Shown: in pieces, positions 2,268 through 62,171 of the stretch
Position numbering within the stretch: position 1 is the stretch's first letter
Layout: each line of letters starts with the position of its first letter
IMG/VR virus record: IMGVR_UViG_3300025168_000071
Location: 4,796 to 68,795 of that record
DNA length: 64,000 bases
Source of the DNA: a virus
Direction: 5' to 3' (one strand)
The notes under the pieces: generated by a model
What the model was told of the DNA's origin: nothing
Database searches by the model: none
Seen by the model: the letters and a program-made list of their open reading frames with translations, nothing else
Program-made: the position numbers and the translations under genes

Positions 2268-2855
2268 TTAATTTGCGTGATCTATATTTTCGTCGATATC
2301 TTCAGCATACTTAACTCTTCTTGCACGTATTTTGATGTCAGGGAAGACGTCTCTTAGTTCTTCCACTGCCTCTACGTTCTTACCGGAGTCATCAAAGAAT
2401 AACACGTCTGTTGCGCCGGCCCTAATTCTGTCATGAATCCAAGACGATTTGGCATGAGGATCTGAATCACCTAAAAGCTCAAATGTGATCATAGATGTAT
2501 CGAGCCCAATGCTCTCAAGATAATCTCGAATTGAGGCCTCTGCTTCCGGAGCCCGAGCCGTTAAGATAGCTATTTCTCGACCTTCTGTTCCTGCGTTAAG
2601 GGCGTTACGGATAATATTAGTTATCTGCTTAATCTCTCTTGGGTTGATAACTTCATCGAACTCAGAGAAGTCATATTCATAATCTGGATTGATTTTGTGA
2701 GTTGCATATTCGCCGGGAGTCATTTCGATTCTTTGTCCGGTATCAGTTGTAATATATATATTAGAATCGGACTTTGCGATTGTATCATCAAAATCAAAAA
2801 CACGAAGCTTTGATTCATTCAAATACTGACGCCAATTTTCAAGTAGGAGTTTCAT
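2268..2855 (-). CDS. HAD-superfamily phosphatase-like protein with MKLLLENW leader
   Basis: FDFDDT motif I, LTAR, K, FFDD motif IV. Confidence 0.8.
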   Translation of the reverse strand: MKLLLENWRQYLNESKLRVFDFDDTIAKSDSNIYITTDTGQRIEMTPGEYATHKINPDYEYDFSEFDEVINPREIKQITNIIRNALNAGTEGREIAILTARAPEAEASIRDYLESIGLDTSMITFELLGDSDPHAKSSWIHDRIRAGATDVLFFDDSGKNVEAVEELRDVFPDIKIRARRVKYAEDIDENIDHAN

Positions 2856-2856
2856 A

Positions 2857-3918
2857 TTAGCTAAATAGTCCGAGATCAGTGATTACGAAATCCTTTGTCC
2901 CGGGCCGAACCATCACATTTCCAGAGTGAACATCTTTTGGTTGCCACTTTTGATCATCATGGAAATATCTCATCGCATTCATGAGTTGCCGCGCTTCCGG
3001 AAACAGTTTTTCTATGCTCTTTGGTGAGCGGCCAGCTAATGAAACTTCACCATGGCCTTGATGTATAGGAACTATTTGTTTTTCGAGAACTCTTTCAATA
3101 GAACTTATAAGTGACTCTTTAAATACTGCCGGGAGTGAGTCATACCACCCCGGGTCTTGTTTTAAATAGGGTAGCGATTCCTCAACGATTAAATCAACTA
3201 TCACACTCGGAGCAACCCAGTTGATCGCCGGCCCAGCGCCCTCATCGCTATAGCTAATGATTTCTTCATCATTATCAATAATCCTCTTTATAACTTTATT
3301 CGGGACCTCCATAAGGATTTTCTTCATAACATCACGGGATCCTTGACTCAATATGAGGTTCCCATATAGAACGGTTGTAATAACATCATATGCGGCCTCG
3401 GGGTCTTTAAATATTGTGGCATACTTTTCGTGCCTTGACAAGTCGTTGTCTTTATCATTTAATCTGAATAGATCAGTTTTCACTCTTTCTGGGATGTCTT
3501 GGAGGACTTCCATAAAGATATAGTAGTCTTTGTCACCTACAACCACATCATAAACATCAGGTAGATACTTGGCATATTTTTCAGGCATCGAAGCTTTATT
3601 TTCCATCGCAAAACGATAGTTTCTAGCTTCCTGATCAGCACTGGCCGGCCCACCCCATAGGCGCCCGGTCACAACCTTTAGCGCATTACGCTCACCAGTT
3701 TCTCTGTTCTCGACCAAAAACACTTCGCCCATTTGGCCCTTGCCAAGTTTCTTAATATAGTGGAAACCGAGTTTATCAGCGGTCTTCTTGACTCTCGTTA
3801 AGAACTCCTCTTCTTCTTGGCGAGGTCCGCCAGCCATGGTGGCAGTGTCGGTGTTGTTAATACCAAGCGAAATTTCTTCGTTTACAAACTTTCGCCAATT
3901 TTCAAGTAGGAGTTTCAT
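2857..3918 (-). CDS. Ser/Thr protein kinase-like protein with MKLLLENW leader
   Basis: LGKGQMGEVF, ALK, QE, FME, DVHSGNVM, DLG. Confidence 0.8.
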   Translation of the reverse strand: MKLLLENWRKFVNEEISLGINNTDTATMAGGPRQEEEEFLTRVKKTADKLGFHYIKKLGKGQMGEVFLVENRETGERNALKVVTGRLWGGPASADQEARNYRFAMENKASMPEKYAKYLPDVYDVVVGDKDYYIFMEVLQDIPERVKTDLFRLNDKDNDLSRHEKYATIFKDPEAAYDVITTVLYGNLILSQGSRDVMKKILMEVPNKVIKRIIDNDEEIISYSDEGAGPAINWVAPSVIVDLIVEESLPYLKQDPGWYDSLPAVFKESLISSIERVLEKQIVPIHQGHGEVSLAGRSPKSIEKLFPEARQLMNAMRYFHDDQKWQPKDVHSGNVMVRPGTKDFVITDLGLFS

Positions 3919-20488: not shown

Positions 20489-20542
20489 ATTATACACGTG
20501 TCGAAAGCAAAGGTCAAGCGGATCCTGTCAAGAGAATGTCAA
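20489..20542 (-). promoter_or_regulatory. Early promoter cassette copy 1
   Basis: TTGACA-N5-TTGACA...TTGACC-N17-TATAAT. Confidence 0.85.
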
Positions 20543-24720: not shown

Positions 24721-24945
24721 TCAGTCGTTGCAGCAATCGGGGTGTTCCCAGTTACACACTTGCCAATCGCTGATTTCCTCATTGGTGTGGAGCGCGTCGG
24801 CGAAGTTGCTCCATGCCTCGGAGCGTGCAACGGTGTCGGCGTGACCCATGCGCTGCTCGCTCTCTTGGAACAGTGGAAGGATACATTCCTCAAACTGTGC
24901 TTCTGCTTGGTCAAAGGTCATAACGGTGTCGAGTTGTGAAGCCAT
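24721..24945 (-). CDS. Hypothetical protein
   Basis: AAGGAG RBS; EAWSNFADAL...I...Q...W pattern. Confidence 0.7.
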   Translation of the reverse strand: MASQLDTVMTFDQAEAQFEECILPLFQESEQRMGHADTVARSEAWSNFADALHTNEEISDWQVCNWEHPDCCND

Positions 24946-24972
24946 GGTGGTTTCTCCTTATTTGGTATAACC

Positions 24973-25027
24973 ATTATCTCATAGGCGAGAAGAAAAAGCA
25001 AGGGTTTTGTTGTCAGGGAAATGTCAA
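24973..25027 (-). promoter_or_regulatory. Early promoter cassette copy 5
   Basis: TTGACA/CTGACA boxes, TTGCTT-N17-GATAAT. Confidence 0.75.
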
Positions 25028-25050
25028 GAGTTGAAAACGCAGGTTGAAAG

Positions 25051-25226
25051 GGGACAATAGAGAGTGCCGCTGTCCTCGTCGCGCCACATTACCAGCCGCG
25101 TGTTGACTGCCTCGGAGGGGCGCGCCCATCTGAATCGTCCCCGATCCTGATTGCCTCACAATGGGCTGGGGTTCACTCGCGGCCTTGAACCCCGTTACGT
25201 TGATTTACACTTCTCTCTATCGTCCC
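25051..25226 (-). ncRNA. Candidate structured ncRNA (176 nt)
   Basis: 14-bp closing stem GGGACGATAGAGAG/CTCTCTATTGTCCC, internal hairpins, no ORF. Confidence 0.6.
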
Positions 25227-25241
25227 ACAATCATAATGCCC

Positions 25242-26051
25242 TTACTTCTTTTTGGGGGCGCGCCCTCGTTTTAGGTAGCGTTCCTCAATCAAAAATGTCT
25301 GCGCGCCACCTACCGGAAGCACTTTATAAACCTTGCACCCGCGTGCTGCGCTGGTGGGGATTGCGGCGTTAGTCGCCACCACCACGCAAAGATTATGCTT
25401 GTTGGGGCATTTCTCATTTCTATCGCGCCAAGTTGCACCGGCGGCCAATGCCACCATTGCGCCGGGTACAAACTTTGGTTCAGCATGCCAGCCGGCCAGC
25501 ACCTTACGCGCAAACTTGTTATCAGTCACTTTCCGGTACTCGTCTATTGTTGGCGTATGCGAGGGATCGGCTGTCAATGCATTGACTTGGCGCGTGAAGT
25601 AACCCGTTGTCTTATAATAACCAAGGGCGATCCGGTAGTTTTCTGCCATGATGTCATCCCACTGGCCGCTAAATGTTGTGCGCGCTGCCATGGCGTCATC
25701 ACTATACTTAGCAGCGATCTTGTCAAGGATGTCGGTCTGACGTTCGGAAAGCTCACGGCCGCCAATAAGTTGCGTGCGTACACTATTGATAAATCGGTCA
25801 TCCCACGACCCCGGATCAAGCTCTGCGATGCGCTCAATAATCGGCGCAAGCTCCTCGATGCCGGCGACCGGTTCAGGGCGCGAGGAATAACGTTCCTCCA
25901 TTTGCAAAAAGCAGCGCCGGCGACCAACAGAAAGCGCGCCCTTACGCTTATAGCTGGAGTAGAGGCTTTCCGCGAAGCTCCGATCTCGGGCGCTAACGTA
26001 GTCCTTCGCGAGAAGGGCAGCAAATCGGTCGTGGTAGGTGATGCGGGGCAT
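25242..26051 (-). CDS. Hypothetical protein with two internal helical repeats
   Basis: D.SFAESL...LS and D.RFINSV...LSERQ repeats; AGGAG RBS. Confidence 0.75.
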   Translation of the reverse strand: MPRITYHDRFAALLAKDYVSARDRSFAESLYSSYKRKGALSVGRRRCFLQMEERYSSRPEPVAGIEELAPIIERIAELDPGSWDDRFINSVRTQLIGGRELSERQTDILDKIAAKYSDDAMAARTTFSGQWDDIMAENYRIALGYYKTTGYFTRQVNALTADPSHTPTIDEYRKVTDNKFARKVLAGWHAEPKFVPGAMVALAAGATWRDRNEKCPNKHNLCVVVATNAAIPTSAARGCKVYKVLPVGGAQTFLIEERYLKRGRAPKKK

Positions 26052-26076: not shown

Positions 26077-26129
26077 AGTATACAGGAAGCGAAAGAAAAG
26101 GTCAAGCGGTTTCTGTCAAGAGAATGTCA
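26077..26129 (-). promoter_or_regulatory. Early promoter cassette copy 6
   Basis: Boxes plus TTGACC-N17-TATACT. Confidence 0.85.
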
Positions 26130-31434: not shown

Positions 31435-31827
31435 CTAATACGCCGCACTACGCTCAATGTGGATGTCAAAGCCCCAGCCGGCCACCTCATTGTCATCCAT
31501 TTCTTCACCAATGCGAACGAAGCGGAAAAACTCTGAGGCAGCTTCAACTTCGTCCTCTCCATTTTCCTTCTTTTTTCCTGTGGGGATGGTTTCCTCATCA
31601 CACCACATGATAAAGTCTTGAATGGCGGATACTCCCTCGCAAGAGTCGTACCACTTGATCTGATCCCAACGGAACAGAAACGCGCCTTTAATGTCGTAGT
31701 AGTCCTTGACCATTTCGCTGTCTCTCCAGCACATTTCTCGCGCTTCGGGCGACTTTGCCATTGTGACCATAAACTGAGGCATAACCTCTGGACCGACTGC
31801 CAATATAACTTCTGAACGATAACCCAT
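31435..31827 (-). CDS. Conserved-looking phage hypothetical protein
   Basis: MGYRSEV...IKWY...FVRIGEEMDD.E motif; AAGGAG RBS. Confidence 0.75.
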   Translation of the reverse strand: MGYRSEVILAVGPEVMPQFMVTMAKSPEAREMCWRDSEMVKDYYDIKGAFLFRWDQIKWYDSCEGVSAIQDFIMWCDEETIPTGKKKENGEDEVEAASEFFRFVRIGEEMDDNEVAGWGFDIHIERSAAY

Positions 31828-34500: not shown

Positions 34501-34577
34501 TGGTGGACCCTGTGGGACTTGAACCCACGACCGACCGGTTATGAGCCGGATGCTCTGACCAACTGAGCTAAGGGTCC
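34501..34577 (-). tRNA. tRNA with CAT anticodon (probably Ile2, else Met)
   Basis: GGACCCTTAGCTCAG...CTCATAA...GTTCAAGTC...ACCA cloverleaf; resembles bacterial tRNA-Ile2. Confidence 0.9.
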
Positions 34578-34581
34578 GTTT

Positions 34582-35013
34582 TTAATCTCTCTTTCTCACG
34601 TGTCGCTGTGGAACCCGGTTTACTGGAAACGTATCTGGTTCGTACTTCTTCACACTGAAACTCTTTGTGGGAATGTGTTTGTATGAGTCGAGCCGATAAA
34701 AGAAGCACTCCCCTTCTTTGTTTACCCCAACAAGCCAATCGATCCCGTGCGCTGCATAGTCTGTGGAGTTGCGGACTTTGCCTGTTTTGCTGACAACTTC
34801 GCCGGAGCGATCTATCACTTTAGATATGCTATTGCCGCTCATTGTCTTAACTTGAACCGTGGCGAATATTCCCTCACCGTGGTCCACAACCAAATCATAG
34901 ATGCTATCCCGGCTGACGGGCTGAAGTACAATCCAGCCTCGTTCCGTAATCTCCAGCATGGCCAAGATTTGGCTGCGGTTGCCACTCTGATCTGATGTGT
35001 CGCGATAGCTCAC
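34582..35013 (-). CDS. PD-(D/E)XK endonuclease (free-standing homing-endonuclease-like)
   Basis: P....IYDLVVD...VQVKT...Y....IDWLVGV. Confidence 0.7.
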   Translation of the reverse strand: MSYRDTSDQSGNRSQILAMLEITERGWIVLQPVSRDSIYDLVVDHGEGIFATVQVKTMSGNSISKVIDRSGEVVSKTGKVRNSTDYAAHGIDWLVGVNKEGECFFYRLDSYKHIPTKSFSVKKYEPDTFPVNRVPQRHVRKRD

Positions 35014-35171
35014 TGCTTTTCTAACTCTTTTGACACAGTCTCGTATTGAGCAAGCGCCGCCTTTTCAAGTTGATTGCGCGCTTGTCTAATCTTGGCAGGA
35101 TTCTCTGCAATCCAGTCCAGCGCAAAAAATGCCAACACGGCAATAACAGTATAACGTAAAATAGTTTCCAT
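35010..35171 (-). CDS. Small membrane protein
   Basis: METILRYTVIAVLAFFALDW; GGGAG RBS. Confidence 0.6.
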   Translation of the reverse strand: METILRYTVIAVLAFFALDWIAENPAKIRQARNQLEKAALAQYETVSKELEKQ

Positions 35172-35197
35172 GTCTCTCTTCTCCCTCTTATTAAAAA

Positions 35198-35273
35198 TGG
35201 TAGGCCGAGCGGGATTTGAACCCGCGACAAATGGCATATAAGGCCACTGCTCTTACCCCTGAGCTACCAGCCA
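35198..35273 (-). tRNA. tRNA-Ile(TAT)
   Basis: Cloverleaf, anticodon arm GTGGC-CTTATAT-GCCAT, CCA end; T1:T72 mismatch. Confidence 0.8.
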
Positions 35274-35281
35274 TCATTGGT

Positions 35282-35353
35282 TTATGATGTAGCCAAGGCG
35301 AACAACATAATGCCGGCTATGATTGCTAAAAAGCCAAATCCTATAAATGTCAC
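35282..35353 (-). CDS. 23-aa hydrophobic peptide between tRNAs
   Basis: MTFIGFGFLAIIAGIMLFALATS; AGGAG RBS. Confidence 0.4.
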   Translation of the reverse strand: MTFIGFGFLAIIAGIMLFALATS

Positions 35354-35374
35354 TTCTTTCTCCTGTTTGTGATG

Positions 35375-35440
<66 letters not shown>

Positions 35441-35450
<10 letters not shown>

Positions 35451-35671
35451 GTACTACTCTTAGTATCTAATATAGCACATTCCGAAGCGTCTGTCAACCC
35501 CTCGGCGTTAAAAAATACGCCGTGGTGTCCCGGCACTATTGCAAGAACACGGCATGTCTTTGAACGTGCCTTAATCTGATTCAAAGCCTCGGACTTGTCT
35601 GGGTTCGCGATCTCTTGCGAATAGTATGGTTGATTTGTCGTGTAATCCAACCAAATAACTGTATAACACAT
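35441..35671 (-). CDS. Hypothetical protein
   Basis: GAGGAG RBS; tail overlaps promoter and tRNA 5' end. Confidence 0.5.
35469..35497 (-). promoter_or_regulatory. sigma70 promoter for tRNA-Arg operon
   Basis: TTGACA-N17-TATATT with TG extension. Confidence 0.7.
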
Positions 35672-35691
35672 ATCTCTTTCTCCTCTTTTTA

Positions 35692-35877
35692 TCATGTTGG
35701 TTCAATAAGCCACCACGGGCATGTCACTTTCTTGCCTTCGTGGTCATCCTTCTTTCTGGGGGTGCTGACCCACCCTTCGGGAGTCTCTATCACGCACTCA
35801 TCCCCCTCGCATCTATCAATAACACATTCTGGCTCCTCTGGCATGTCAAAGGCCAGAATCGTAAGCAACCATATCAT
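35692..35877 (-). CDS. Small exported Cys-containing protein
   Basis: AGGAG RBS; hydrophobic N-terminus. Confidence 0.55.
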   Translation of the reverse strand: MIWLLTILAFDMPEEPECVIDRCEGDECVIETPEGWVSTPRKKDDHEGKKVTCPWWLIEPT

Positions 35878-35880
35878 CTC

Positions 35881-36099
35881 CTATCTCCTTCGTTTTGTAA
35901 ATCTTGCTTTGCTGCGCTTTCCACGCTTTCGCTTGTTCTTTCTTTTACCACTCTTAAAAGTCGCGTTGGTACCTTTACTCTTTCCCTTCTTGAATACGCG
36001 GCGGGCTTTCCGTCGCAGCTTTTTAGGCTTACAAGAAGAGCAATCTCCTAACATAACGAGTGCGCCAAGTATGAGCGCGCCCTTTAGTAGATCCTCCAT
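35881..36099 (-). CDS. Small highly basic protein with N-terminal hydrophobic helix
   Basis: GGAGG RBS; K/R-rich tail. Confidence 0.5.
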   Translation of the reverse strand: MEDLLKGALILGALVMLGDCSSCKPKKLRRKARRVFKKGKSKGTNATFKSGKRKNKRKRGKRSKARFTKRRR

Positions 36100-36134
36100 T
36101 TTACCTCCTATCATTTTGTTATCTCCCCCTAAAG

Positions 36135-36210
36135 TGGTGGGTCATCTGGGACTCGAACCCAGAACCTACGGATTAAAAGTCCGGTGCTCTACCAGTTGAG
36201 CTAATGACCC
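36135..36210 (-). tRNA. tRNA-Lys(TTT)
   Basis: Cloverleaf, loop CTTTTAA, CCA end. Confidence 0.95.
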
Positions 36211-36213
36211 ATT

Positions 36214-36312
36214 GTTCCTCCAGCGCCGATTCGCTCCGATTGCTATCGCAACCAGTCGGTGACGGCATGCACCACGAGGCGGGCATGCTAACGCCGCCGC
36301 TGAACAAGGAAC
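36214..36312 (-). ncRNA. Candidate three-way-junction ncRNA between tRNAs
   Basis: GTTCC/GGAAC and TTCAGCG/CGCTGGA closing stem, two long hairpins. Confidence 0.55.
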
Positions 36313-36318
36313 TGCAAA

Positions 36319-36405
36319 TGGTAGCTCCGATGGGATTCGAACCCATAAGCCCGATACGGGCGTCAGATTTTAAGTCTAATGTGTATACCATTCCACCACG
36401 GAGCC
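36319..36405 (-). tRNA. tRNA-Leu(TAA)
   Basis: Cloverleaf with long variable arm, loop CTTAAAA, CCA end. Confidence 0.95.
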
Positions 36406-47026: not shown

Positions 47027-48598
47027 TTACTCCGTTTGTATAATACCGTAATTAGTGGTAATCAGCGTACCAGCACAACTTACCGCATTTTGGAGTGCTG
47101 TACGAGTTACCTTAACTGGATCTAGGATTCCTGCATCGTGCAAGTTTACCATCTTGCCACCGCGGAAATCCCAGCCACTGTTATCATCTGCGGCTAAAAC
47201 ATCTCTCACAACAAGGTCGGGAGAGATGCCGGCGTTCAAAGCCATCTGTCGTATAGGCTCCTTGCATGCCTCTTGGATAATCCCTCCGGCCATGGCTTGA
47301 TCACTACTATTAACTGACATCACCATGGAAGATGAGGCACGAAGCAACGCTGTGCCACCGCCGCCGACAATACCTTCTTCTTGGGCTGAGCGGACTGCTT
47401 CTAATGCGTCTTCAACCCTGTGTTTCTTTTCAATCATCTCGATCTCAGTAGCACCGCCGACACGGATAATTGCTACACCAGATGAAAGGCGCACAATGCG
47501 ATCTTGAATCTGCTCGCATATCTGTAGTGAGTCTGTTTGTCCAATGAGTGCCTTTAGCTGGATGATTTGTTCTTCGATCTTTTCGAAGTCACCGTTACCT
47601 CCAACTATCGTGGTTACATACTTGTTACTTTCAACGAACTTAGCTGAGCCCAAGTGGCCCATTTTTACTTCTGGCAGCTTTATGCCACCCTCGCGAGATA
47701 CAAACGTGGCACCAACAGAGAGTGCGAGATCCTGCATGGTGTTGCGGCGATCTTCTCCGTACCTCGGCGCCTTGATAGCGGCGATCTTCATGGTGCCGCG
47801 CACTGCATTCATAATCAAAGCAGCTAATGCCTGACCTTCAATGTCTTCAGACACGATAACCAGTGGGCGGCCTTCTCTTGCCACCATCTCAAGAATGGGT
47901 AGGATCTGATCAACAGCGTTAATCTTATAGTCGGTGACCAAAAACAGCGGCTCATCATGATACATCGTGGCGCGGCGCTCATCGGTAACAAATGCGCCGG
48001 CACAGTACCCCGCGTCTAAGCGAAAGCCTTCGGTGATGTCCAGCGAAGTTTCTAATGATCGTGACTCCTCAATCGTGATAGAGCCATCCTGCCCCACCTT
48101 GTCCACCGCAGAAGCAATAAGCTGCCCTATCTTCTCGTCATTGTTGGCAGAAATAGTTGCGATATGGCGAATGTCTTCAATACTTTTAACCGGCCGGCTG
48201 GCGGCCTTAAGGCACGTTACTACCTCGTTTGCTGCCACAGCCATGCCGCGCTGTAACTCGATAGGTGAGATGCCAGCCAGTATATAGCGTTGAGCTTCTC
48301 GTAGAATGGCGCGCGCTAAGACTGTGGCTGTGGTCGTGCCATCTCCAGCGTCACTATTCGTTTGTACTGCCGCTTGCTTGATTACTTGCGCGCCGGCGTT
48401 TTCAAAGGGGTCATCAAGCGCCACAAAATGTGCTACTGTCACACCGTCCTTCGTAATAAATGGGGGCTTCCCCTTCTCTTGTAGTAAAACGTTTCTTCCC
48501 TTGGGTCCCAGCGTTGATGCAACGTTATCCGCTAGGATGTTGGCTCCTTCGATAATCTTTCGTTGAAGGGCCTCTTTACTCTCATAGTTTCTACTCAT
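47027..48598 (-). CDS. groEL: Chaperonin GroEL
   Basis: TLGPKGRNV, ITKDGVTVA, AGDGTTTATVLA, GGGTAL, DPVKVTR. Confidence 0.97.
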   Translation of the reverse strand: MSRNYESKEALQRKIIEGANILADNVASTLGPKGRNVLLQEKGKPPFITKDGVTVAHFVALDDPFENAGAQVIKQAAVQTNSDAGDGTTTATVLARAILREAQRYILAGISPIELQRGMAVAANEVVTCLKAASRPVKSIEDIRHIATISANNDEKIGQLIASAVDKVGQDGSITIEESRSLETSLDITEGFRLDAGYCAGAFVTDERRATMYHDEPLFLVTDYKINAVDQILPILEMVAREGRPLVIVSEDIEGQALAALIMNAVRGTMKIAAIKAPRYGEDRRNTMQDLALSVGATFVSREGGIKLPEVKMGHLGSAKFVESNKYVTTIVGGNGDFEKIEEQIIQLKALIGQTDSLQICEQIQDRIVRLSSGVAIIRVGGATEIEMIEKKHRVEDALEAVRSAQEEGIVGGGGTALLRASSSMVMSVNSSDQAMAGGIIQEACKEPIRQMALNAGISPDLVVRDVLAADDNSGWDFRGGKMVNLHDAGILDPVKVTRTALQNAVSCAGTLITTNYGIIQTE

Positions 48599-58748: not shown

Positions 58749-61700
58749 TTACCCCAGTTGTTTAAACGACTTTCCTACGGCATAGGTGGAGAATCCCCAC
58801 TGTTCATCGTATTTCAGACGTGCCATATATGGTCGGTTTAAGTATATACGATCCTTCTCGGGTTTAATACCCCAACATCTAATCTTTGTTGACTGATTGT
58901 TTGAATCGATGACCTCTACGATCCAGTAAAGCTTACCGTTCTTCGTCTTCTTTGGTATGATCTTGCGAGGAATAAACCAGCACAAGAAAAGATCCGGGTC
59001 AAACTCAGAGATAGGTGGAACACCCTTCTCCTTGAGACGTTCGACTGTGGCCTGTTTGATCACCAAGTTAAGCGGGAAAACGCCAGTTAAATCTGACTTA
59101 AACTGGATGATCTCCTCCTCACTAAAGTCTCCCTCTGGCCTGAATGTCTCGATGTTATCGCCGAAGCGCTTAAGGTTCTTGGGCCTGTCTACAATACATG
59201 CAGACCAAAAATGTTTACGACCAGTAAACCGATCATCTACAATGTGATCCAGCGCGCCGGCGCGACACATGGCATCCAACGCCTTCTTATTGAGTTTGCT
59301 ATAAACTACCTCTTCTCGGAACAAAAGATCCTCGGCGTTCGTGAACGGGCGATTGTTTAGAATCTGCTCAATGGCCGACATTCCCAAGCCCTTAATGGAT
59401 GTGAGGGGTTGGATGAGTGTCTTCCCGTCGTCGCTAATTTCCCACACAGTACCAGACTTATTGATGTCCAACGCTGCAATCTCAAAACCAAACTGCTTGG
59501 CAATATTAATAGCCTTCTCTTTACGAGTCTCTGGCTCTTTGTCCAAGAATGCTGCCATCCATTCGGCTGGGTAGTAAGTCCAGAGCCAAGCACATTGATA
59601 AGAAATCATGCTGTATGAAACGGCATGTGACTTGTTAAAGCCATAGCCCGAGAAGAATTCAAACTTGTTCCACAGGCTAATTGCTGCGTCCTTGTCGATT
59701 CCCTTCCCCACACAACCTTCCACAAACTTAATGCGAAGTTTTGTTTTGATGCCACCTTTTCCAGTACCCTTCTTGGTCAGTACTTTGCGAAGCTTGTTTC
59801 CTTCGTCAAGCGTAAGGTCGCCCAGCTTGTGGGCTAACAGTGCGATCTGCTCTTGGAAGATTAGGAATCCGAATGTTTCTTCGGTGATCTCTCTATCATC
59901 ATCTGAAAGGTATTGGATGCGGTGGGGGTGTCCCATTGCTTCAATATACTCCTCATGTACATCGGCCGACAGTGGGCCGGGCCGATAGATGGATGTGATG
60001 GCTGAGATATCAATGATATTGTTCGGCTTCACTCTCTTGCAGAAGTTCTGTGCACCTGTCTCAGTGAACTGGAAGATGCCGGCCCACTTTCCTTTATGGA
60101 AGGTGTTCTTGTAAACTTTCTTGTCTTCAAGATCAACTACATCAGGATGGATAGTTTCGTCATAGTACCTCTTTACGTCGTTGAACGTCGGATTCTCGAC
60201 ACCGTGATGACGGCGCAGGATGTGCTCAATGCAGCCCTCCATCATCTTAAGTGTTGAAAGCCCAAGCAAATCGAACTTAATGAAGCCCATTGGCTCAAGG
60301 TGCCGAACGTTCTGACCCTCGGACCATGGTGTTTGTCGTACCCCGCCGGAGTTAATCAGCGGCATGTAGTTGTCAAGATTCTCAGCAACCACCACTCCAC
60401 CAGCGTGACGTGAACAACTACGTACCTGACCCACTAAGCCCTCTACGTGAGACTTGACGGCAGGATACTTAGCAAGGTATAACTGCAGCGAAGAAGAGTA
60501 TTCTATAACTTCTTCCCACGTTGGCACATATACGCCGGCTTTGATGCCGTGCTTCTGCTTGGCAAACGGCGTAGCTTCCCGCATCATAACGCTAGTGACG
60601 GTGTTGGCTTCTGTAAAGGGAACGCCATAAAGCTTAGAGATATCCTTGATCAACGAACGAAGCTGCAGAGTGTTCCAGTTGGAAATCGGAGCTACTGTAT
60701 CTTCTCCCCACATGTCGACCAGCTTCTCCTTCAACATCATACTGTCTGATACATCATAATCGATATCAGGATAGTCGGTGGCGTCGGAACGCAAGAACCG
60801 AGAAAACAGTAGATTGTATTTGATCGGATCTATCTGTGTGATGCCAAGTGCGTACGCTACCAGTGAGCCGGCGGCTGAACCTCGGCCGGGACCTGCGAGC
60901 ATCATACTATTCGCCACATCAGAGATTGCTTTCATTGTCAGGAAGTATTTGCTGAATCCTCGGTCATCGATGACATGCAACTCATGGTTGAGGCGATCCA
61001 TATACTCTTGATTTTCGTGCAGCCCTGCCTCTCTCAAGCCTTCTAATGAAAGATTGATCAAAGCCTCGGTGTCTGTAAATCCAGCCGGCACCACAAACGA
61101 TGGCAAGCGCACAGTATTGTCAGGCAAGAACCTGTCGATGCGCTCATGGGCAATCTTATGTGTCTGTTCGATTGAATCGAGAACAAGTTGATCATCATAA
61201 TCATATCCCTCGGAGTACTTCTTGTAGCTCTCCCACATCTGGTCGCCGTTCTTGGGATACAATTCGTATCCAATCTCATCTACATCGACTGGAAGTTCAT
61301 TATCCTTAGCCCACTCTGGGGCGCCCTTACCAAGCCAGCCTAAGCGCTTGTAAAGCTCACGGTCCTTCCAAGCGTCGGGGTTGGGGTAGTGGCTATCGGC
61401 TGTAGAGATCATACCGACACCAAATTCTTTGGCAACAGTAATAATGTGCTGGTTAAGCGCATGTTGTTCTGGGATGTTATTCCATTGCAGTTCTGCATAC
61501 CAACGATCCCCAAAGATGTCTACCATCTTCTCGGTCGTCTCGCGCATTGCGTCGAGTACTGCGGGTTCTCCGGAGTCGCGGTTCTCCCAGTAGTTACCCG
61601 CATACACACCGCCAAGACAAGCGGACGCGGCGATGATGCCTTCGTTATACTTCTTAAGCAACGCATAATCAATGCGCGGATATCGGTAATAGTTCTCCGG

Positions 61701-62171
61701 CTGGTATGACTCGGAGATGAGCTTGAACAGATTGTTGAGACCGGTCTGATTTTGAACCAGAAGAATCAGGTGGCGGCGCCGGCGCAATAGATCTTGTACC
61801 CGCTTGCTGTCACCCTCGTTCTCAACAGTTGCCCCAGACTGTTCATCTTTCTTCGCGCTTCTGGCGCGCTTCTTATCTTCCATGACGGTAGTGTACTCGT
61901 CACGCCACTCATCGAGAGACGGCAAGAAATATGCTTCACACCCAAAGATAGGCTTGAATTCCTTACCCTCCTCTTGCATCTTACGCGCATGTAAGACTTG
62001 ATACGCTAACCCATTCATGTTCCCATGATCGGTCAGTGCCAGTGCGTCACCCCCATTCTCATAAGCGTAATCCATGTGTGCTTGGGGATACCCCAGTGCG
62101 TCGAAAATAGAACCCGCCACGCTATGCGCATGCAGGCCTACAAATTTAATCTTGGATGTGGTTCTATCCAA
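58749..62171 (-). CDS. dnaE: DNA polymerase III alpha subunit
   Basis: PHP LHAHS/LTDHG, GRGSAAGSLVAY, PDIDYD, KFDLLGL, FNKSH. Confidence 0.97.
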   Translation of the reverse strand: MDRTTSKIKFVGLHAHSVAGSIFDALGYPQAHMDYAYENGGDALALTDHGNMNGLAYQVLHARKMQEEGKEFKPIFGCEAYFLPSLDEWRDEYTTVMEDKKRARSAKKDEQSGATVENEGDSKRVQDLLRRRRHLILLVQNQTGLNNLFKLISESYQPENYYRYPRIDYALLKKYNEGIIAASACLGGVYAGNYWENRDSGEPAVLDAMRETTEKMVDIFGDRWYAELQWNNIPEQHALNQHIITVAKEFGVGMISTADSHYPNPDAWKDRELYKRLGWLGKGAPEWAKDNELPVDVDEIGYELYPKNGDQMWESYKKYSEGYDYDDQLVLDSIEQTHKIAHERIDRFLPDNTVRLPSFVVPAGFTDTEALINLSLEGLREAGLHENQEYMDRLNHELHVIDDRGFSKYFLTMKAISDVANSMMLAGPGRGSAAGSLVAYALGITQIDPIKYNLLFSRFLRSDATDYPDIDYDVSDSMMLKEKLVDMWGEDTVAPISNWNTLQLRSLIKDISKLYGVPFTEANTVTSVMMREATPFAKQKHGIKAGVYVPTWEEVIEYSSSLQLYLAKYPAVKSHVEGLVGQVRSCSRHAGGVVVAENLDNYMPLINSGGVRQTPWSEGQNVRHLEPMGFIKFDLLGLSTLKMMEGCIEHILRRHHGVENPTFNDVKRYYDETIHPDVVDLEDKKVYKNTFHKGKWAGIFQFTETGAQNFCKRVKPNNIIDISAITSIYRPGPLSADVHEEYIEAMGHPHRIQYLSDDDREITEETFGFLIFQEQIALLAHKLGDLTLDEGNKLRKVLTKKGTGKGGIKTKLRIKFVEGCVGKGIDKDAAISLWNKFEFFSGYGFNKSHAVSYSMISYQCAWLWTYYPAEWMAAFLDKEPETRKEKAINIAKQFGFEIAALDINKSGTVWEISDDGKTLIQPLTSIKGLGMSAIEQILNNRPFTNAEDLLFREEVVYSKLNKKALDAMCRAGALDHIVDDRFTGRKHFWSACIVDRPKNLKRFGDNIETFRPEGDFSEEEIIQFKSDLTGVFPLNLVIKQATVERLKEKGVPPISEFDPDLFLCWFIPRKIIPKKTKNGKLYWIVEVIDSNNQSTKIRCWGIKPEKDRIYLNRPYMARLKYDEQWGFSTYAVGKSFKQLG

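Follow-up and report, generated by a model that had tools for sequence, protein, structure and literature searches.

Nearly all long ORFs of the 64-kb stretch of viral DNA analysed here (hereafter the window) lie on the minus strand, and behind one of them, the gene of a 269-aa protein (p269), a gene-sized slot extends up to a promoter cassette. What does this slot hold? A preliminary description made from the letters alone had placed there an unrecognised structured RNA of 176 nt with a possible pseudoknot. We examined the fold of this segment, its conservation, its relatives and its genomic surroundings, and compared it with the known classes of RNA. The features of the locus are the following.

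26077–26105, minus strand: sigma-70-like promoter before p269 (TTGACC, 17-nt spacer, TATACT; 10 of 12 consensus matches)
25242–26051, minus strand: p269 gene, 269 aa, without a Pfam family; its stop codon lies 15 nt ahead of the RNA start
25217–25234, minus strand: mini-ORF MIVGR*, 5 codons, between p269 and the RNA, with its last codons inside the P1 5' strand
25051–25226, minus strand: whole RNA, the sole match of covariance model R1 in the window (112 bits, E 5.2e-28, model positions 1–175 of 175)
24973–25027, minus strand: downstream promoter cassette (TTGACA, CTGACA, TTGCTT, then TGAGATAAT), 3' border of the slot
34501–36405, minus strand: five tRNA genes, Met(cat), Ile(tat), Arg(tct), Lys(ttt) and Leu(taa), from ARAGORN and Rfam, with small ORFs interspersed

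A structured RNA lies between p269 and a promoter cassette

Minus-strand positions 25226–25051 of the window form a 176-nt structured RNA, present once in the window and once in the 68,795-base record to which the window belongs (rated 35% complete). The minus strand folds at −71.9 kcal/mol (z = −2.87), with 1 of 200 shuffles equally good, while the fold of the plus strand is weaker (z = −1.42; 19 of 200 shuffles equally good). In an alignment of 40 distinct sequences (A6), G.U cells outnumber A.C cells by 23 to 6 and the RNA is therefore read from the minus strand, in agreement with the fold energies. Any fully open reading frame is held by only 7 of the 40 distinct sequences, which indicates that the element is non-coding.

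The slot is bounded as the preliminary description had it: the cassette starts 23 nt after the RNA end and is one of 14 composite cassettes, all on the minus strand between window positions 20542 and 33903 (none on the plus strand), that stand before almost every small gene of this region. Such a cassette is made of two or three TTGACA-like hexamers about 11 bp (one helical turn) apart, followed by TGn and a TATAAT-like −10 hexamer. The one at 24973–25027 was recognised as one of the 14 alike and is absent from the list of the consensus promoter scan. Over the window, TTGACA occurs 60 times on the minus strand versus 12 times on the plus strand. The genes downstream of the RNA are a 74-aa ORF, a MoxR-type AAA ATPase and a DUF2201/VWA protein; the ATPase has 163 distant matches in 50,697 deposited phage records, the best 15 of the 163 being at most 25.6% identical. 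Elsewhere on the minus strand (2268–3918, 47027–48598 and 58749–62171), genes of large phages are found: a polynucleotide-kinase-like gene adjoining a 353-aa ORF, a GroEL-type chaperonin, a 1140-aa DNA polymerase and two head-maturation-protease-like genes.

The RNA folds into a long closing helix around a pseudoknotted core

The fold is a long closing helix, P1, around a multi-helix core. Its elements are listed from the 5' to the 3' end of the RNA.

25213–25226, minus strand: P1 5' strand, GGGACGAUAGAGAG, pairs with 25051–25064 (14 bp, one G.U)
25194–25212, minus strand: J1/2, A/U-rich single-stranded linker, 13–20 nt across the family (from alignments)
25168–25193, minus strand: P2 hairpin, stem GGGGUUC/GAACCCC, loop of 12 nt, 97.9% paired in A6
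25178–25184, minus strand: pseudoknot 5' strand GGCCGCG, within the P2 loop; helix 98.0% paired in A6
25124–25166, minus strand: P3, variable hairpin domain, closing stem GCCCAU/AUGGGC plus an inner hairpin (single-sequence folds)
25109–25121, minus strand: P5 hairpin, GCC, 7-nt loop, GGC, directly abutting a conserved AGU
25094–25100, minus strand: pseudoknot 3' strand CGCGGCU, 78 nt downstream of the loop, covarying
25068–25083, minus strand: P6 hairpin, CGC-GACGAGGACA-GCG, conserved 10-nt purine-rich loop, covarying outer pair
25051–25064, minus strand: P1 3' strand, CUCUCUAUUGUCCC, pairs with 25213–25226

All complementary segments named in the preliminary description were found on the minus strand. 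Its 14-bp terminal stem with a single G-U pair is P1, in which the G.U lies at position 6 and which covaries. Measured by script, P1 is 11–19 bp long in 33 of the 34 rows examined, mostly 14–16 bp (the 34th, L270, is cut at a bulge), and every one of its outer six pairs changes on both sides in A6. The hairpin GGGGUUCA / UGAACCCC is P2 (25193–25168): its inner UUC/GAA (U-A, U-A, C-G) is invariant in 40 of 40 distinct sequences and its outer three pairs covary, with pair types GC/CG, GC/AU and GC/CG/UA.

The suspected pairing of loop GGCCGCG (25184–25178) with distal CGCGGCT (25100–25094) also covaries. A 5-bp core of this pseudoknot is conserved family-wide and is extended to 7 bp in the window; the pair types observed in the core are CG22/UA12/UG6, UA17/GC12/CG5/GU2/AU1 and CG25/UA9/UG6. 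A single pair beside it, U25175-A25101, covaries as well (CG20/UA20, columns 53:147), and the pseudoknot with this neighbouring pair occurs in 17 different sequence versions among the 40 distinct sequences. Covariation is strong for P2, for the pseudoknot and for the pair that flanks it.

The remaining hairpins are described in less uniform ways. GCCCAT/ATGGGC closes P3 in the window, and close relatives with other letters (GCUCAC/GUGAGC, GCCUG/CAGGC) are still paired at this place; P3 is known from single-sequence folds and has no fixed alignment columns for a pairing count. P5 abuts AGU in 39 of the 40 distinct sequences with closing pairs GC19, CG12, UA5 and GU3, a descriptive, uncontrolled count obtained by fitting the nearest hairpin in each sequence separately; in relatives its loop is often a GNRA-type tetraloop. 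The outer pair of P6 is CG37/UA3 (columns 170:185) and its stem reaches 4–7 bp in subclades. Two bases of the P6 loop, A25079 and C25078, form a two-pair contact with U25091 and G25092 on the strand after the pseudoknot, with pair types CG26/UA13/UG1 (columns 159:174) and GC37/GU3. The support for P6 and for the P6-loop contact is one covarying pair each. As for the stem GCGCC/GGCGC of the preliminary description, its segments are present but the helix is not conserved, each position being paired in 12–24 of the 40 distinct sequences; the RNA probably does not use this pairing, and the letters concerned belong to P5 and P6. The window copy shows all the features of family R1, namely P1, P2 with UUC/GAA, the 5-bp pseudoknot, P5 abutting AGU, and P6.

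Other candidate pairings were discarded. A long-range helix between the strand after P2 and CGCGG of P6 appears only in some single-sequence folds and competes with the covarying P6. The pairing CUG/CAG (GGCUGG segment with ACAGC) is broken without compensation in L262, L263 and L350, and an AGU/RCU helix given by RNAalifold overlaps the pseudoknot and has no double changes.

The letters of P1 vary between subclades. In one of them (L318, L335, L337, L340, L366 at 1913–2087, L371, L373 and L393; also L360 and L402), the TTGACA-like hexamer that opens the downstream cassette forms part of the P1 3' strand, and the 5' strand carries the matching complement; the closing helix is built there from whatever sequence stood at the border. 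In L262, L263, L350, L398, L173, L342 and L430, the outer part of P1 has a purine-rich 5' strand of GGAG/GAGG type and a pyrimidine-rich 3' strand. We take this P1 to resemble a Shine-Dalgarno:anti-Shine-Dalgarno duplex, unlike that of the window.

Covariation in two alignments

Two alignments were analysed: A4, a plain MAFFT alignment of 34 sequences that is not fitted to structure, and A6, made with the model from 40 distinct sequences. Standard pairs filled 93.2% of the cells in A4 and 98.6% in A6, versus 32–48% (A4) and 31–47% (A6) when the 3' partners were slid by 1–3 columns. The covariation score was 0.441 in A4 and 0.527 in A6, the best slid version reaching 0.159 and 0.154 respectively, and the observed score was matched by 0 of 500 shuffles in either alignment. 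The pseudoknot and the two extra contacts are absent from model R1, so that those columns of A6 were not fitted to the model. An unbiased scan of all column pairs of the MAFFT alignment (34 sequences) placed the pseudoknot columns among the top covarying pairs. MAFFT leaves P1 and P5 out of register; P1 was measured by script and P5 by its nearest hairpin. In addition, many unpaired bases are invariant across the family (about 25 invariant bases).

The preliminary description had left the structure to be judged by covariation, which proved strong for P1, P2 and the pseudoknot. The RNA-level fold is under strong purifying selection.

The RNA is a core gene of an uncultured phage clade

At least 56 homologues including the window copy, 40 of them distinct, were collected from viral and metagenome contigs with the covariance model and aligned in A6. 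Three viral contigs with p269 relatives carry a homologous RNA right behind the gene, with a closing helix of wholly different sequence in which pairing is kept. A profile-based scan for p269 returned 56 loci; the RNA lies directly downstream in 7 of the 36 that were read, and the covariance model confirms 7 of 51. The pattern of invariant bases was found on at least 119 stretches of metagenome contigs, and among those listed 48 match the model and 71 are chance. Since this figure is a lower bound, more copies must exist than the 56 or more collected.

The covariance model was searched on loci preselected by pattern and on ten whole virus records. It matches 8 of these 10 records, all of which have p269 relatives. 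Eight of the ten are at least 90% complete (185–205 kb, two with direct terminal repeats), and 7 of these contain a match. The matches in whole records score 56–115 bits, keep P1, P2, the pseudoknot and P6, and include genomes where the RNA does not adjoin p269. These data show that the RNA is a core, single-copy, near-universal gene of an uncultured phage clade with genomes of about 200 kb.

When the same pattern was applied to one genome for each of 185,579 prokaryote species, 59 stretches were obtained and 0 of the 59 match R1; the strict pattern would miss diverged copies, and no cellular or prophage copy was found with it. The DNA of the element had no match in the 50,697 deposited phage records in near or distant modes. 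Among the other patterns, a strict one gave 6 stretches (4 true, 2 chance), a hairpin-only one gave 14 loci in viral contigs, none related, and two loose ones gave, among the matches listed, mostly chance hits in G+C-rich phages with only L173 true.

A shorter relative lies beside phage tmRNA

Two genomes contain a weak second match (26–27 bits), at L438:1501–1627 and L443:1501–1638. It is shorter than the main RNA, keeps the layout of P1, P2 and the loop-to-downstream pairing, and may constitute a second family. The distance from this paralogue to the phage tmRNA downstream of it is 12 nt in L438 (tmRNA tag ANNNNHFEAVALAA) and 830 nt in L443 (tmRNA tag ANNNNHFDSVRLAA). A tmRNA_permuted row (48.8 bits, gathering score 47) begins within the 3' half of the L438 paralogue and extends into the adjacent tmRNA; because the same model also matches beside the L443 tmRNA, the row in L438 is read as tmRNA.

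Linkage to p269 and transcription signals

In 24 of 33 loci, and also in the window, the gene immediately upstream of the RNA is p269, regardless of changes in the gene order downstream, and the RNA begins 6–60 nt past the stop codon of this gene. A 124-aa protein is encoded there instead in 6 loci and, by inspection, in L434 and L437; the homologue of this protein in the window (31438–31827, 70% identity) is 6 kb away from the RNA. In L435 the RNA is located between tRNA genes.

As a sigma-70-like promoter precedes p269, the gene and the RNA look like one transcription unit, and judging from its sequence this promoter (26077–26105) is likely the start of the RNA-carrying transcript. A promoter consensus scan of the window found no promoter of the RNA's own. 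Neither was a terminator-like site seen at the RNA 3' end: the scan of the minus strand gave only 25929–25915 and 24676–24662, and the window has no G+C-rich hairpin followed by a U-run at this place. A U-run after P1 is present in only a few relatives (L259, L266 and L442). The neighbouring unit (24721–24945) abuts its cassette, without room for a terminator.

The mini-ORF that precedes the RNA in the window has counterparts. A Shine-Dalgarno-like word followed by a mini-ORF of 3–6 codons was found in 15 of 37 distinct upstream contexts, whereas 200 shuffles gave 2.9 on average and 7 at most; L342, L403, L259, L327, L398, L362, L429, L350, L263 and L416 are among these loci. In several relatives the start codon of the mini-ORF lies within a short palindrome.

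The p269 family comprises 49 metagenome clusters, none with a Pfam domain, and the only name given to its members is 'hypothetical protein'. Queried against the 50,697 deposited phage records, the protein had no relative. Its AlphaFold model is confident (mean pLDDT 91.8) and consists of an all-helical N-terminal part, a small KOW/Tudor/SH3-like barrel and a lysine-rich basic tail. A Foldseek search of the fold gave no significant match, and VIA-align of residues 190–268 returned a generic small barrel whose best Z of 7.4 (rmsd 2.1 over 56 residues) is within the range reached by unrelated models.

Possible roles as a trans-acting small RNA or a cis-acting 3'-UTR element

Our best explanation, which we hold tentatively, is that the element encodes a new structured small RNA, which is cut from mRNA and acts in trans with a protein partner. 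Transcription from the promoter at 26105–26077 would yield an mRNA of the p269 unit with the RNA in its 3' part, and the RNA would be excised from this read-through transcript at or next to P1, by a double-strand-specific cut of RNase III type or by cuts in the flanking A/U-rich single strands. With its 11–19 bp, P1 is long enough for a double-strand RNase; it resembles an RNase III-type processing stem by length only, taken as an unbroken duplex of about one turn or more (a predicted stem of 14 bp in the window). Once free, the molecule would act in trans as a stable RNA, its compact pseudoknotted core serving as the binding platform for the partner. A role in translation or RNA metabolism seems most likely because of the tRNA-gene neighbours in relatives and the tmRNA-side paralogue, a gene link that rests on two or three genomes. 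We prefer a stable RNA because the full structure is kept in different gene contexts, including tRNA and tmRNA neighbourhoods, because the RNA is unique among the 14 unit borders of the window, and because it is far more elaborate than a stability hairpin.

The linkage to p269 in 24 of 33 loci, kept under gene rearrangement, fits a cis-acting 3'-UTR role equally well. The RNA would then govern how stable the p269 message is, as a structured barrier or a processing site, or would serve p269 as an operator for autoregulation, and the enriched upstream mini-ORF could couple RNA folding to translation. We regard this as possible but rather unlikely. The close spacing behind the stop codon survives downstream reordering, and the predicted barrel and basic tail of p269 would be compatible with RNA binding, but the fold match is no better than what unrelated models reach. 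Moreover, in at least 8 lineages the RNA follows another gene, lies among tRNA genes or is kilobases from p269, and conversely 29 of 36 p269-relative loci have no RNA directly downstream and 44 of 51 no model match in the locus. The pseudoknot, the two further covarying contacts and the roughly 25 invariant bases also go far beyond what a stability hairpin needs.

Comparison with known RNA classes

The RNA had been described as unrecognised, and as neither a tRNA, a riboswitch nor a known ribozyme, and the searches agree on each count. At gathering score, Rfam 15 (4227 models) finds in the whole window five tRNAs only, none on the RNA. At E<=10, positions 24900–25400 give one chance row (an lncRNA region, E = 1, other strand, 24953–25057), and in 19 related loci no row overlaps the main RNA in the 17 holding it. 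ARAGORN calls no tRNA or tmRNA at 25051–25226, only the 5 tRNAs at 34501–36405, and the tRNA and tmRNA hits in related loci lie beside the RNA and not on it. No Rfam ribozyme row and no row of the phi29-type pRNA model RF00044 appears at E<=10 in positions 24900–25400 or in the 19 related loci. A resemblance to RNase P RNA or to a hammerhead core was likewise dropped, with no Rfam support at E<=10, as was the reading of AGGA in the P6 loop as a Shine-Dalgarno-like or binding site, diverged members having AGAACA, AAGACA or AAAACA.

Several phage and bacterial RNAs share part of this architecture. The phi29-like pRNA is phage-encoded, about 170 nt long, with paired 5' and 3' ends and covarying loop-to-loop pairs. 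The RNA described here is similar to it in origin, size, end-closing helix and covarying loop contact, but differs in its helix layout, has no Rfam match and belongs to genomes of about 200 kb instead of small phi29-like phages; the partner of its loop is an intramolecular strand, in a nested H-type arrangement, though loop pairing between molecules may also occur. The stable small RNAs C and D of phage T4 are encoded with tRNA genes. By description only, the RNA resembles them in being phage-borne and, in L435, in adjoining tRNA genes; in the window it immediately follows a protein gene and is 9 kb away from the tRNA cluster. As in the first pseudoknot of tmRNA, a hairpin loop pairs with a downstream strand; in contrast to tmRNA, there is neither a tRNA-like domain nor a tag reading frame, and neither ARAGORN nor RF00023 calls it. 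Bacterial small RNAs derived from mRNA 3' UTRs are mostly simple and end in an intrinsic terminator. The RNA likewise comes last in a protein-coding unit and seems to lack its own promoter, but has five or six helices plus a pseudoknot and no terminator. Within the tentatively favoured reading of a trans-acting small RNA, the molecule would work most like other phage-borne stable small RNAs; its layout recalls RNAs that have an end-closing helix and covarying loop contacts.

Ribozymes and ligand-binding RNAs, too, typically have folds of such complexity. A bolder proposal, which we judge unlikely, is a new, clade-universal class of RNA machine, either a new ribozyme that processes the early transcripts of the phage, or an RNA whose binding to the host ribosome or to a translation factor would let the phage seize translation; if this were true, the tmRNA-side paralogue would be a second member of the same machinery. 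The narrower possibility of a new self-cleaving or otherwise catalytic RNA that processes polycistronic early transcripts appears quite unlikely to us. Pistol, twister and HDV-like ribozymes are built on a compact core with a pseudoknot and invariant junction bases and are frequently associated with phages, and small ribozymes in general are often phage-borne. The phage-borne RNA has such a core and such junction bases, frequent GNRA-type P5 loops and a position at a transcription-unit border. However, it is about three times larger than those ribozymes, offers no candidate cleavage site that can be named, has no Rfam ribozyme match at E<=10 and is limited to one copy per genome, against 14 unit borders in the window alone.

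A ligand-sensing, riboswitch-like aptamer controlling read-through into the next unit is very unlikely. Covarying stems around invariant junction bases do resemble aptamer conservation, but the RNA lies upstream of the next gene's own promoter cassette and not in a 5' UTR, no expression platform or terminator-like site follows it, and the downstream genes vary between relatives. Finally, a DNA-level element (a miniature transposable element, a replication origin or a protein-binding palindrome), to which the 14-bp inverted repeat at the ends could point, is most improbable: the element is single-copy (1–2 model hits per complete genome), its end sequences are unconserved and change only in compensating pairs, the 23 G.U versus 6 A.C cells fit one-strand RNA pairing, and the internal pseudoknot covaries.

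Novelty and significance

As far as sequence comparison reaches, the RNA is a new family with a new fold, 'new' applying to family and fold and not to functional class. Word searches of the literature found no description of such an RNA; since they cannot reach an unnamed motif, this is weak evidence of absence from print. Fremin et al. 2023 (PMC10690425) report a screen of viral sequences for 10,006 candidate structured RNAs, and the supplementary catalogue of that paper may list the element without description.

Complex pseudoknotted RNAs with many invariant unpaired bases are rare, and they have repeatedly proved to be ribozymes, riboswitches or the cores of RNA-protein machines. Here such an RNA is a near-universal single-copy gene in a phage clade whose neighbouring proteins lack relatives in 50,697 phage genomes. 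It is a defined object of 176 nt with a known fold, for which compensatory mutants can be designed from the alignment, and it provides a handle on the RNA-based functions that giant phages bring into their hosts.
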